From Eledone cirrhosa (Eukaryota): 64,000 bases of DNA. Below, in pieces: positions 2,372-61,200 of the stretch (the stretch's first letter is position 1; each line of letters opens with the position of its first letter). The stretch is taken from NCBI GenBank assembly GCA_964016885.1, contig OZ024748.1:58900001-58964000 (forward strand). Direction: 5' to 3'. Both the position numbers and the translations under genes were made by a program. The notes beneath the pieces were generated by a model. The model searched no databases and was not told the origin of the DNA. It was given only the letters and a program-made list of their open reading frames with translations.

Positions 2372-4324
2372 ATATATATATATATATATAAGGGAACAAA
2401 GGATCCGCGTTGCATCACATATATATATATATATATATAACGAAGGAAATGTGGTAAGGAATCAGATGGACCATAACGCACCAAAGTACTCAATACTTAG
2501 GGTAGTAGAGTCGGTAATAGGAACAAGTAGGACCCGACGGCTGAGCTCAAGCCATTTCGACGGCTAATTCTCGGAGAATTAGCCGTCGAAACGGCTTGAG
2601 CTCAGCCATCGGGGTCCTACTCGTTCCTATATATATATATATATATATATATATATATATATATATAGGTATTAGAGGTGCAAATTAATTGCGTCCGTAT
2701 GTTGTATGTTGGACCATTGTGTCACAGCACTAAAATGATTACTTTTCTGTGTAGGCTGGGTGCTTTCAACACGTGGCCTTGGTGCTCTTTAGTCATATTA
2801 CCTTAAAGGAAGGACAAAGTGTTCTTTTGTCATGTCACTAACATGACCACCTTATGTGGTGGACTTGAGGCTTTTGTTGTATCACGAGCATGATAACCTT
2901 GCAGTCTGGGCTGAGTGCTTTTAACTTTATCCTATACGCTTGAGAAGGCGGATCTTCTGCAGTACTGCGTTATACCAGATATCTTGATCCTGTGTCATTG
3001 CCTTTGAGTAGTGCAATTGTGAGGTCAACTTTTATCACCTCATCCCAAGCTTTCTTAGGTTATCCTCTTCCATAGCTTCCATCAACTTCGAGTGCTCTGT
3101 ACCTTTTTACAGAGCTGTCATCCTTCATACACATCACATGTCCTTACCATTGCCTCTGATCTCTGTTATGCTCAGTTTCTCTTTCAGTTAAAATACTGTT
3201 ATATATATATATATAGGCACATGGCTTAGTGGTTAGAGCATCAGATTCACAATCATGAGGTTGTGTTTGATTCTTGAGCAAGACACTTTATTACACATTG
3301 CTCCAGTTTACTCAGCTGTAGAAATGAGTTGTGTTGTCCCTGATACCTTTCTCATGGACAACATCAGGGGCATGGAGAGGGGAGACTGGTATGCATGGGC
3401 AACTGCTGGTCTTCCACCTTGCCTGGACTTGTGTCTTGGAAGGGATCTCTACCCTTACCCTTTATATATATGTATGTGTGGGTGTGTATCAATAATACAG
3501 ATGACCTGCCTTCACAGGTTGAAGCATACATCTAGTATGCACCACTTAACTCCTATCCTCCCTCCATCCTTTCATATAAATCCCACGCCCTAACACTCCA
3601 CTCACATCTTAATCATCCCACCCATCACTATTTACACCCCTATCACCAGTCCACCCTGTAAAGTGGACATTTTGGGATCACGACACAAAAAGCAGCCAGT
3701 CCACACAGTTAATGTGATTGGCGTTAGGAAGGGCATCGAGCTGTAGAAACCAAGCCAGAAACAGTTCTGTATGTACAAGACACGGTCACCTGACATGACT
3801 TACTCAAATGGGACAACCTGTCTAACCAAAGCTAGTGTGGCAAATAGACGTTAAATGATGATGATGAAAATAAAGTGAATTTCGTAAAAAAATATCCAAA
3901 CTTAACTGAACACTGAGTCCGAGGAAGAAGTAATAGTTTCCTCAGTGAATCGTGCTGTATAAGAAACAGGATGTATATGTAAACCGTCTCTCTTCTATAT
4001 AATATTGACTCACCGTCTGATACATTATCGGTAATAACTTAAGTGGCCCATGTCCTGGAGTGCTTACATCTGTTTACACCTAAGTCGATCCCTTAATTGA
4101 TCAACCATCGTTTCTTTACTTGAATAATATATGTATAAATCAATCCCAGTGCATTACTGTTACTTTATTATATCAACCTCATAAGAATGAAAGGCAAGGT
4201 TTGGTGGGGTTAGAACTGAGAAGGTAAAGGGCCGTAAAACATGTTGTCCGACGCTCTACCGATACTGCCAATCCACCACCCTTATATATATATATATATA
4301 TATATATATTTCATATCATGTCTC

Positions 4325-4395
4325 TATTTTATCTGATGAGAACGCAGATATCATCCCATGAGGATATTTGTTTTGGAAATGCGCATAATAAAATA
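4325..4395 (+). ncRNA. Type I hammerhead ribozyme motif
   Basis: TATTTTAT-CTGATGA-[stem II CAGATATC/GATATTTG]-GAA-ATGCGCAT-A^ATAAAATA. Perfect 8-bp stem I and palindromic stem III; the base pair closing stem II is mismatched. Confidence 0.8.
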
Positions 4396-4494
4396 CTTGG
4401 AACTCTTTTAACCATCTTTTGATCTTATATTATATATATATATATATATATATATATATATATATATATATATAAAATATATTACATTATATTA

Positions 4495-4665
4495 TCGGTA
4501 GAGGGTCGGACGCCATGCTTTGACGCATAGAGTTACGGCCCTTGCCATTCTGAGTTCAAATCCCGCCGAGGTTAACTTTGCCTTTCATCCTTACGTGGTT
4601 GATAAAATAAAGTACCAGTAATACACTGGTTAATTGCTGGCCTTGTGCCAAAAGTAGAAACAAAT
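4495..4665 (+). mobile_element. tRNA-derived SINE family B (Nin/Deu-domain-like)
   Basis: B-box GAGTTCAAATCCC followed by GCCTTTCATCCTT...GATAAAATAAAGTACCAG, resembling the Nin/Deu conserved domain. Other copies at about 4140-4283(-), 5222-5420(-), 5975-6180, 9000-9115, 13925-14105, 31700-31880, 41650-41722(-) and 61080-61760(-). Confidence 0.8.
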
Positions 4666-57724: not shown

Positions 57725-57927
57725 TAGTTATGTAATAAACAACATAAGGCAATTATTCCATTTACCGGTGGTTTCTTAAAAGCAAAATATTTTGCTTTCA
57801 ATCCTCAGAATGAAAAAATCCTGAGACCAGGATTTTTTCATTCTGAGGATTGAAAGCAAAATTATTTACTTTTAAGAAACCACTGGTAAATGGAATAATT
57901 GCCTTATGTTGTTTATTACATAACTAT
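57725..57927. repeat. Near-perfect palindrome, about 100-bp arms
   Basis: Centre AAAAAATCCTG-AGAC-CAGGATTTTTT. The arms carry GAA-AGCAAAATATTTT(G/A)CT-T. Confidence 0.95.
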
Positions 57928-58004
57928 TAAGCTCTGTTACCTACATAGAGCACTCTTTTTTCCTGGACTTTTCCGACGGAATTACTTCACATATATATAT
58001 ATAT

Positions 58005-58250
58005 ATAGTAAATGAGTGAAGAATAACGTGGATCGGCTGTACAATGGGGTTTATTCAAAGTATTAACAATTGTTTCATTAGACCGGTGTGTCTAAAAACC
58101 ACTGTTTGTAAAAAGCTAAGTCACTCGATTTTAATTGCAGTTGATACCCGACCAAATCTTCAGAATACTGGACTAATGAAACAATTGTTAATACTTTGAA
58201 TAAATCCTATTGTACAGCCAATCCACGTTACTTTTCACTCATTTACTATT
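58005..58250. repeat. Inverted repeat, about 80-bp arms, with the HHR 5' half in the spacer
   Basis: TAGTAAATGAGTGAA...AACAATTGTTTCATTAG mirrored by CTAATGAAACAATTGTT...TTCACTCATTTACTA. Confidence 0.92.
58059..58169 (-). ncRNA. Type I hammerhead with long stem II
   Basis: AGTATT-CTGAAGA-TTTGGTCGG...CCGGTCTAAT-GAA-ACAATTGT-T^AATACT. Perfect 6-bp stem I and palindromic stem III. Confidence 0.78.
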
Positions 58251-61200
58251 ATTACTCCAAGTACCTCTTACCTAGGAAGAGTCTTGAATCGGCCACCCGA
58301 ACACCACAATTAAGGAAACTTCTTGTTGAGTCAAACAGCGCCGAATATTAAAACTATCCTCGATACAGAGTTCTCATAACCTCTACTTAGATTACCTTAA
58401 ACGATATCTCGTTAACTTATATATATGTTTATCCCGGTTTCAATCGGGGGTAACCACAGTAAGAAAGATACTCAATACATAGCAGAGTATAAATATTTAA
58501 TATAGAAATGGCTTCTACAGGATTAGAACTATTTCATTCGGGAGATTGTGTGTGTGATAATGAAAGTGGTGTAAACTATTCATTATTTGGTAAGGTGCGA
58601 TAAGCTCAATGCGTTAATAAAGTCGACAGCATCCTAGAATCCATGTCCATATATGGCAGGTGAGGTTGCACCATAATCTCTAGTGCTTAGGGCATCGAAA
58701 GAACTGAATTTGGCCTTGTTTCGAATAAAACTGTTTAATAATAAACCGTCTATATTTCCCAATGAAACTGCACAGAATAACACTAGCATGAAACCCAGCA
58801 CTACAAAAGAGCATGTCAACGACATACAAGCTGGATTTGCTATTCGACATTTAATACAAAGCAGTGCAATATTTTATCCAATATAATTTAACATAATATT
58901 TCAGCACTAAAACCCGCTTGTCAAATGCGGAGCTGAAACTGTTAAAAAAACTAAACGAACGAAAAGAGGGTAATAACCCTGAAATATGGTGTTAAGATAT
59001 ATTGGGTAAAACGTTACTTTGTTTCGTTTTATTTTTCATCATTTGCCTTTTATAATTTTCTACCGCATTATACCGGCTTTCAAACTAGATTTTGTTAACT
59101 AATGTTGATTCTTTAGAAAAGGTTGAAGTAATATATCAATTTTGACAGAGAATAGGATGTATATCACAGAAAGATGGAGAAAATTATCTGACAGAATTTC
59201 TGAGCATGAACATAACAACCAGCATAAATTGAATTATGCATCATATAAAAGAGCTGGAACGAAGAATTCGTTGAAATAAATGCTAAGAACGTTATCTGAA
59301 TAAACTAAATGTAACAAAGGGAAGGGGCCACACTAATGTTTAACATCTTCTAATTGTCATATTTTATTTTTGAGTGAAAGCATTCCGTAGTGATTCTTGC
59401 TTAATTAGTGGGCTCATAATAATAAATTCCTTAGGGTGGCTACACTTCTTTTTGTATTATTAGGATCATGTATTAGAAACCCACGCCTGAAAATGAATGT
59501 TGCAAATACATTATTCGTCAGTTGAATAATAAAATGGGTTTATGGTTCTGTGCTCCCATCTCGTTTTGAAACACTCTCTGAAAGTTAAAAGAAAATGTAA
59601 TATTTACCAACAGTTTATTGACCTCCTAATTCGGTACATGTTCATCTGACAACATTTGCTATTCACCCCATCCAAAGTATAGATAGTGGGTTTATGATTA
59701 ACAAGAGATGAATGACCTTTGAAGTCTGTTGTGAGAAAACAAATTCTGACGTTATAAACCGAGTTAAAGGAAACATTGAAATGGCATTGTCTTAGAAAAT
59801 TGTTGGAGTTAAGTACATGATAATGGTGACAGAACAGCAACAAAGTATAGCACAGATGATATTACTTAATACATGTCCTCTCGCTATCTTTTCACTATAT
59901 ACATGCATGGTTCCGTAACTGCTGGTTGCGGGAAGGGGAGAGGATTCGGTGGAGCACCATATTGGAATACAGAGTTTGTATGGCATATTTTTAAAACGCA
60001 GTGACGCCCATCTCCTCCCCAGATATGCATACAGCAGATTTCTTCCAGAGAAGGATAGAGAGTAAGAGAATTGAATTTTTTCAATATAATGGATGCCATA
60101 AATTGAACGTTTGTGACACAGAATCAGCAGAATGCTGCGCTGAATCAGTTCCCTTTTTCGGGGATTTTGACAGGGTCTATAATATCGTTTCTTATAGCTG
60201 AAAAAATCTAATTCTTGAGATACTCAGGGTGTTAATCATTACATCGCATGTCAACCACCCGGGGTGGTCAACTAGAATTGATAGTGTGAAATCATTCATA
60301 TCAAATCTTAATGTTCCTGCAGGATGTTCTAAAAATTAATCTGACGACAAAACCCAATAGTGAATTAACAGAATATAGGAAAAACACGTCTCCTTTTATT
60401 TCAGATGTAATCTTATGCCTTACATCTGTTTCAACATCCTTCCACTTAATAACATCTGCAGCATGATATTATAGGCAAGAGATGCTACAGTTGATTTTGA
60501 AATAGACAATGTTGAAATTGATAAATAAACTACAATCAAATGAGAAAACGAGAAATATATTATTTTTTTATTGCAAGCAGTCAAGTCATGGAAGCCATGA
60601 TGATAGCAAAGTATCCTGATACATAGATAAGGTGAGCGGACTCCCGTCAGTATCGACGACGAGTGTTCCAGTTGTTCAATCAATGGAACCACCAGCATGT
60701 AGATATAACTTATAATGTCAAAATATTGGGAAGAGGGAATAATTAACCAAGTAGGAGCGCTATTTCTCCGAATTGAGAGATCACAGCTTCGATATTAGGA
60801 CATGGAGTTAGAATGTTTCGGTAAAGAATCGCTGGACAGATTTTACAGGTAAAATTAGAGGTGGTTAACCCCGAGCAAGATGGTGGGATAACATCCATGT
60901 CCATTAACTCGGCTAGTCTCGCTTGGATATCCAGCCAGATCAACTGGAGACGGTTGCTTCTGACATGAGCTGCTAGGAAGAGTATTGAGGCATCTTCCCC
61001 CACAGCCCTCCCAGGAACAAGTGGGTGAATAAGATGAAGAAGAAGAATGGAATAACCAATTTTACTGATCCAGTACTTCACTGTTTCTTTATTCTCTGAA
61101 CCTAGGAAAAATTGAAGACAAAGTTGCTTTCAGTGAAATTTAAATCCAGAAGCTATAGAACCGTAAATACCACAATGTATTTGTCTAACGTCCTTTCCAT

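Follow-up and report, generated by a model that had tools for sequence, protein, structure and literature searches.

How does a Penelope-like element (PLE) come to lie in its host genome as a pair of inverted arms, only one of which carries a 3' tail? The question is raised by a 64,000-nt stretch of the TA-rich, 3.0-Gb genome of Eledone cirrhosa (G000:C8:58,900,001-58,964,000; hereafter the window). Inverted pairs in the window were recovered by self-BLAST and a palindrome scan, and the insertions considered here are, as judged by sequence, 5'-truncated Hydra-clade PLE insertions in (TA)n. A preliminary description had claimed that at 13 sites one arm stops just before a bulged hairpin through which its partner continues. 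All 13 ends were recovered within 0-9 nt of where they had been placed, 2-9 nt upstream of the hairpin, and they run into (TA)n. That description knew of one hairpin; two exist, and both arm ends fall under the same rule, such that short arms end before hairpin 1 and tailed (long) arms before hairpin 2. We hypothesize that each hairpin positions one start of reverse transcription and that the two cut target strands each prime a complementary DNA (cDNA), a form of twin priming, and we consider this reading likely, with a probability of roughly 0.7.

Arm ends are fixed and paired one of each

Arm 3' ends were called against 11 natural reference arms in a random sample of 119 evenly spaced 10-kb stretches (1.19 Mb). 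The ends are bimodal in all 11 reference families. For family A, plotting the ends against the hairpin beyond the window, as had been proposed at the outset, gave two peaks rather than a broad distribution: among 85 ends from the 119 stretches and the window, 40 lie at -11 to -2 from ACTC (28 of them exactly at -5), 37 lie at the tail end (+70 to +72) and 8 lie elsewhere. The long end is thus as much a fixed position as the short one, located in (TA)n just before the second hairpin copy.

The two kinds of end are distributed between arms in a strict manner. The random stretches yielded 79 inverted pairs. Of these, 70 combine a short with a long arm, in keeping with the original statement that the tail is present on one arm only, and 5 contain an off-site arm; 70 of the other 74 pairs against an expectation of 0.5 gives a binomial p of 6e-17. 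None of 37 selected tailed arms has an inverted tail within 1.5 kb. Arms left unpaired at 1.5 kb (n = 128) comprise 69 short, 40 long, 17 off-site and 2 cut arms, many of which have partners too short or too distant for detection. In two family B1 insertions elsewhere in the genome (L063 and L037), both inverted arms are at least ~1 kb long and 97% alike, one short-ended and the other tailed.

A further claim was that junctions form via TA microhomology. Microhomology is present, typically 1-5 nt, but it does not choose the site. Genome-wide, exact patterns for family A match 14,799 short ends and 14,175 arms that continue into the tail, and only 22 (GTAT) and 50 (GTTAT) ends at equal TA microhomologies inside the tail; internal TAT is therefore used ~300-700 times less, bearing in mind that the patterns differ and hence decay at somewhat different rates.

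Two predicted bulged hairpins in the element leader

The sequence that short arms stop 2-9 nt before is a bulged hairpin of the form RCTC..NN-GAGY, predicted to fold with a loop of 1 to ~60 nt. A test that demanded only RCTC and GAGY covered 64 distinct copies of five family groups, while 14 others lacked the motif. The upper stem pairs in the register of a 2-nt 3' bulge in 53 of the 64, compared with 3-11 for the other registers. Upper stems vary among CAG/CTG, CAA/TTG, TAC/GTA, TGC/GTA and TGT/ACA, the closing pair varies among A-U, G-C and U-A (metagenomic relatives included), and pairs of the G-U type fit the sense strand only. The ACTC stem described initially applies to most sites in the window, with the exception of 36171 and 57724, where it is GCTC..GA(G/C)C, and of 20634, where it has decayed to ATTC.

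Read-through copies of families A, B1 and F contain a second hairpin, GCTC..NN-GAGC, that begins 3-4 nt past the long end and is followed by ATG. The order along the element RNA is then hammerhead region, hairpin 1, a 55-170 nt spacer (the tail), hairpin 2 and ATG. Arms of several families carry a hammerhead core that reads from the palindrome centre outward, and for this reason both arm tips correspond to 3' ends of the element RNA.

The same arrangement is found in distant relatives. We collected 77 metagenomic loci encoding relatives at 35-43% protein identity, of which 45 were taken as having the start of the open reading frame (ORF) and 38 of these have at least 150 nt upstream. Two hairpins are present upstream of the ORF in 21 of the 38, one in 9 and none in 8, with two-hairpin controls of 1/38 inside the ORF, 2/38 on the reverse strand and 0.06 in shuffled sequence; a stricter twin-hairpin rule retains 14 of the 45 loci. 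The twin hairpins are spaced 55-83 nt apart. All 56 distinct motifs, from 37 of the 45 loci (8 without a clear motif being left out), pair in the bulge-2 register, against 0, 1, 8 and 21 in other registers. Second leader copies that end inside a contig do so at -8 to +4 nt from a hairpin start in 13 of 15 cases; both hairpin 1 and hairpin 2 are represented, and the sequence that follows is mostly TA- or AT-rich. The two exceptions are L294 and L334. This count excluded contig-end rows, tandem read-throughs and loci without motif. The twin hairpins and copy ends together extend the rule well beyond the E. cirrhosa genome.

Either arm can be the longer

The lengths of the two arms were compared at the palindrome centre. 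Among unbiased family A pairs scored against a long natural reference (n = 37), 24 have 5' ends at most 15 nt apart, the short arm is longer by more than 20 nt in 13 and the long arm is longer in none; the method misses very short short-ended arms, several of which are visible by eye. Among the pairs at searched loci, 7 have a tailed arm that exceeds its partner by 27-263 nt and 2 have a short arm that does so, by 173 and 717 nt. Family C2 pairs (n = 26) divide into 11 with the short arm longer, 8 with the long arm longer and 7 tied. In PLE 2, in the window, the short-ended body exceeds its inverted arm by 2.4 kb (3.2 versus 0.78 kb). Since either arm can be longer, neither is generally copied from the other, and both are likely RNA-templated. 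Most family A 5' ends (54 of 74) lie at -50 to -85; palindrome centres of this family cluster in a hammerhead-like helix II loop (-55 to -73), and those of the B families near -150 to -200.

The arms of a pair are nonetheless related. In a search-enriched set they share subfamily in 53/57, 51/54, 52/56 and 49/53 cases at four informative sites, which is consistent with one RNA or one source locus. The arm's own partner is strictly its nearest arm in only 5 of 59 cases, and L018 and L166 look partly discordant.

The C2 insertion L114:6087-6308 is the sole two-armed insertion found in a non-TA target. It shows an 8-12 bp target duplication and 1-3 nt of microhomology at both ends, the outcome expected if the nicks are staggered and both 3' ends prime, and its long arm is 7 nt shorter than usual. 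Two pattern searches for further non-TA targets returned mostly mutated tailed arms, with a duplication in 0 of 5 scorable short ends.

Identity of the elements

Family A arms run upstream into a reading frame with reverse transcriptase (RT) and C-terminal GIY-YIG domains, and a 3,543-bp tandem unit of this family holds a natural open ORF of 719 aa, for which 2,018 homologues were found; Pfam gave no match to this ORF or to the PLE fragments of the window. As in endonuclease-containing (EN+) PLEs, a single RT plus GIY-YIG ORF lies upstream of the arms in family A, endonuclease fragments lie upstream of B1, B3, F, P2 and C2 arms, and the insertions combine a pseudo-long terminal repeat (pLTR) derived from tandem copies, an inverted 5'-truncated copy and a one-sided tail. 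Full-length family A units of ~3.54 kb form head-to-tail arrays at L253 (G000:C1:91.475-91.485 Mb) and L254 (C1:437.20 Mb), and it is in one L253 unit that the 719-aa ORF was found open, with an intact ORF at L253:6457-8613 (minus strand).

DKT, RWK, CxCx5C and CxxC/CxH without CCHH are features of the Hydra clade (PMC8557442). The family A ORF and the PLE 1, B1 and F frames display DKT, RWR, YRDD, CxCx5C, YIG, CxxC-E and N..CxH, and no CCHH, with not every motif visible in every family. The DKG to DKT change is present in PLE 1, A and B1 (one B1 copy has DKS), RWR occupies the place of RWK in A and B1, and the CxCx5C linker with CxxC and CxH around E and N, without CCHH, occurs in PLE 1, A, B1 (L063), F (L061) and L033; PLE 2 is decayed at CxxC. 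The clade's preference for (TA)n is also evident, as at least 6 alternating TA bases abut 94 of 113 short and 72 of 113 long ends in a strict count. The putative assignment to the Hydra clade, made from motifs and homologues, covers the ORF-linked families. Family C2, with a CX2-5CxxC linker, CCHH and a C-terminal endonuclease (L086), appears by its motifs to be a Neptune/Nematis-like PLE.

Putative hammerhead cores (CTGANGA..GAAA) are carried by the arms of PLE 1 and of families B, D and C2, as well as by most metagenomic relatives; family A arms have no canonical core. At -101 to -51 of family A (window 50490-50500, L243) there is a hammerhead-like helix II with GAAAC and no canonical CTGANGA core. 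An Rfam scan of the window gave no match at the gathering score, and one metagenomic relative's leader gave only sub-threshold miRNA-family matches. Non-LTR retrozymes, defined as non-coding head-to-tail tandem monomers with a hammerhead (bioRxiv 10.64898/2026.07.22.740005), were considered and rejected, the arms being head-to-head and continuous upstream with coding PLE. An assembly artefact was likewise rejected: the arms differ by 1-24% and their ends are fixed.

A model for insertion and its alternatives

In the model that we favor, the GIY-YIG domain would nick both strands of a TA repeat, after which one target 3' end would prime at U-A-U before hairpin 1 and the other at U-A-U before hairpin 2. 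Each hairpin would bind an RT and set the start just upstream, so that the register would be fixed by the hairpin and the 1-5 nt TA match would only fine-tune it. Both cDNAs would extend toward the RNA 5' end and be joined head-to-head at their 3' ends by end-joining or microhomology, and host repair would complete the palindrome. More tentatively, a two-subunit RT-endonuclease could sit on the two tandem hairpins of one RNA, each subunit nicking one strand of the TA repeat and starting a cDNA 2-5 nt upstream, such that the segment copied twice is joined as a palindrome and the hairpin spacing acts as a ruler for tail length; this might then be the general origin of the inverted pLTRs and tails of PLEs.

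Several observations weigh against the twin-priming model. The priming geometry proposed for the Hydra clade is deduced from sequence. Among the 79 random pairs, 3 are short+short and 1 is long+long (two of these are possibly miscalls from a short reference), two long+long pairs occur among the searched loci, 17 of the 128 unpaired arms are off-site, and two loci in the window, PLE 1 and 50873-50924, break the rule. The near-tied 5' ends of 24 of the 37 family A pairs are also predicted by a fold-back. Target duplications are unreadable within (TA)n, and a single one was observed. Lastly, the Neptune-like family C2 keeps the short/long rule without an ACTC hairpin; the hairpin is therefore not a universal signal, and other clades must use others. 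In one C2 read-through copy (L228:1581 onward), AATATCG stands at the short end and again at the long end, and it may be a repeated signal in a non-Hydra clade.

The hairpin had at first been offered as a stop, a nick or a second-priming site. The precision of the end stands and second priming fits, but a stop is contradicted as a general rule because short arms often hold 20-700 nt more upstream sequence than their tailed partners. A fold-back in which one cDNA begun at the tail end copies itself until halted by hairpin 1 would account for the 24 near-perfect palindromes with tied 5' ends and for the subfamily shared at 53 of 57 informative pairs, and it may explain a minority such as 50873-50924. 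As a general route it is refuted by the pairs whose short arm includes sequence that the tailed partner lacks (13/37 in A, 11/26 in C2, and PLE 2 by 2.4 kb). Moreover, long element bodies themselves end at the short site, and a long end before a hairpin in the same geometry argues for a start rule; we regard the fold-back as very improbable. The main rival is that the GIY-YIG domain cuts a longer cDNA or hairpin DNA intermediate at hairpin-positioned TA steps in single-stranded DNA, once before each hairpin, and that the product is then joined to the target. Such endonuclease resolution was proposed for the tail (PMC8557442), recognition by the D. virilis endonuclease depended on the tail (work cited in PMC11167929), and both ends lie at TA steps, like the target. 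However, a single folded intermediate of fixed polarity predicts that one arm class is always longer, while both directions occur, and RT initiation at both tail boundaries was shown directly for Poseidon (PMC11167929). The sense-only G-U type pairs also speak for RNA, though sense-strand DNA could form them too, and on balance we judge endonuclease resolution unlikely.

Self-priming on an antisense RNA template could also make the inverted junction (PMC3846280), with the ends set afterwards. This would explain palindromic centres and intron retention; it predicts neither two fixed ends, one per arm, nor that either arm may be longer, and the 2-nt-bulge register is that of the sense strand, with two-hairpin leaders rare on the reverse strand (2/38), leaving it less probable again than the fold-back. 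Least credible of all is that the ends are set by TA microhomology alone, or by deletions that later joined a TA-like site to the flanking repeat. Each end does lie at TAT or TATA, and deletion may explain PLE 1, whose relative L186 has an internal deletion from the same region, but the genome-wide counts (22 and 50 internal ends against 14,799) refute this as the source of the ends, and deletion would not yield one short arm per insertion.

Relation to known systems

The likeness to the Hydra clade (Craig et al. 2021, PMC8557442) is extensive: a single ORF of ~720 aa with DKT, RW-R/K, CxCx5C and GIY-YIG with CxxC and CxH but no CCHH, (TA)n targets, a putative hammerhead in the pLTR, an inverted 5'-truncated copy and a tail on one side. 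That work had thus already described the tail, the inverted copy and the targeting of (TA)n, and in it the formation of tandem and inverted insertions with a one-sided tail was named an open task. The differences are that the 30-40 bp tail was ascribed there to endonuclease resolution, with no hairpin pair mentioned in the available text, whereas E. cirrhosa tails span 60-170 nt between two conserved bulged hairpins upstream of ATG, and that the family A hammerhead core is degenerate. In the Poseidon element PAc of Anolis (Frangieh et al. 2024, PMC11167929), the only PLE reconstituted in vitro according to that report, the protein cleaves and extends both target strands at AT-rich sites and two internal RT starts delimit the tail; a stem-loop is linked to initiation and a dimer is predicted. 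The tail and two start sites were thereby already published for another clade. PAc differs in that its starts lie inside one AC-rich stem-loop, 111-118 nt into the ORF, whereas the E. cirrhosa arms stop 2-9 nt before each of two separate 5'-leader hairpins; the available text of the paper does not report a one-of-each rule in inverted pairs, and its authors found that the start site does not differ between strands. Penelope of Adineta vaga (Arkhipova et al. 2013, PMC3846280) shares head-to-head inverted pLTRs, a 31-bp tail on one of them, palindromic junctions and 8-10 bp target duplications, and was interpreted through antisense-template self-priming, whereas the present data favor two separately primed cDNAs.

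A literature search returned no report of twin hairpins or of the pairing rule; older papers on Penelope tails and the supplements of PMC8557442 lay outside it and could bear on novelty. What the present data supply is a clade-wide cis-signal, the two bulged hairpins, and a strict one-of-each rule drawn from tens of thousands of insertions. Paired hairpins would explain the long-puzzling one-sided tail of PLEs, and together with an intact natural ORF, its leader RNA and its target, the data make the priming geometry directly testable. In L1 twin priming, both nicked strands also prime cDNA and the inversion is joined by microhomology, but the internal position of the second primer varies and there is no overlap between the two segments; in the PLE insertions the two starts would be fixed and the same RNA region would serve twice as template. 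The RTs of PLEs are the closest relatives of telomerase, and a structured-RNA ruler for initiation is for this reason of wider interest.

Insertions in the window

In the coordinates that follow, the gap is the distance from the last base shared with the long arm to the first hairpin base, to which a TA-ambiguous zone adds 2-5 nt. Partner arms extend 60-170 nt past the short site (41 nt in PLE 2) and then pass into TA-type repeat. Family A is represented by four insertions: 2440-2630, with its tailed arm leftwards, hairpin 2488-2511 (-) and short end 2630 (gap 5 nt); an old copy at 20432-20634, with a decayed hairpin 20481-20504 (-) and short end 20634 (5); 43469-44015, with hairpin ~43517-43540 (-), short end 44015 (5) and a short arm 165 nt longer than the tailed arm at the centre; and a young copy at 50356-50562, with hairpin 50403-50426 (-) and short end 50562 (5). 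The B families contribute a B2 insertion at 14862-15215 (hairpin 14926-14950, hammerhead core 15061, both on the minus strand; short end 15215, gap 5), a B3 insertion at 15224-15644 (cores 15317 (-) and 15459 (+), hairpin 15564-15584 (+); short end 15224, gap 9), a second B2 insertion at 36650-37068 (cores 36756 (-) and 36869 (+), hairpin 36979-37002 (+); short end 36650, gap 3) and a B1 insertion at 39961-40416 (cores 40065 (-) and 40227 (+), hairpin 40334-40353 (+); short end 39961, gap 2).

A family C insertion occupies 32072-32432, with hairpin 32362-32386 (+) and a short end at ~32072 whose gap of 3-14 nt is ambiguous within TA. Family F is present at 36171-36382 with a long-loop GCTC hairpin 36299-36344 (+) and short end 36171 (4), and family D at 57724-57987 with a GCTC/GAGC hairpin 57931-57951 (+), hammerhead cores 57808 (-) and 57843 (+) and short end 57724 (3). 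A long-tail family insertion at 58005-58417 (short end 58005, gap 4) has a 168-nt tail and a hairpin that opens at 58254, likely with a long loop closing at 58331. Independently assembled contigs, possibly from the same sample, also contain the short-end junction at 57927, which is further evidence against an assembly artefact; four contig sets aligned to 57400-58500 in search of empty sites yielded no piece spanning the insertion site.

Two insertions retain long bodies. PLE 1 (32455-36085, +) is a broken Hydra-clade RT and GIY-YIG body with DKT, YRDD, CxCx5C, YIG, CxxC-E and N..CxH, whose inverted 5' arm is tailed and bears a long-loop hairpin at ~32544-32616 (-). Its 3' arm ends at 36085 inside the hammerhead, an exception to the end rule that had been recognized from the start and is real; among 14 relatives, scorable 3' arms mostly end at the short site or carry the tail. 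PLE 2 (44793-48777, +) comprises a broken Hydra-type RT/endonuclease body of 3.2 kb with a tailless end at 48777 (gap 4) and an inverted arm of ~0.78 kb that passes the short site into hairpin 44805-44829 (-), the remaining tail being missing. This tailed arm ends in a 43-bp perfect-type palindrome (44796-44838) that replaces the rest of the tail and is possibly a small fold-back. The other exception named previously, 50873-50924, was also borne out: a hammerhead-bearing arm (core 50831, -) has at its centre a perfect palindrome of 52 bp, and its partner arm measures only 26 nt.

Other repeats were noted in passing. At 48809-49477, short-ended (+) and tailed (-) C2 arms lie tail-to-tail across a TA run, unlike the usual head-to-head arrangement, and both are also bordered by TA at their 5' ends. 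Further short+long palindromes without a clear RCTC/GAGY hairpin are found at 28097-28381 and at L064 and L081 (families G and H), and in a family F palindrome at 19165-19268 another insertion splits the tailed arm at the short-site TA. The inverted pairs 4146-4629, 5217-5778 and 29965-30346 are other repeats. Fragments of non-LTR reverse transcriptase of the long interspersed nuclear element (LINE) type lie at 24998-25588, 26393-27334 and 41811-42892, and 26396-27331 matches Pfam RVT_1.

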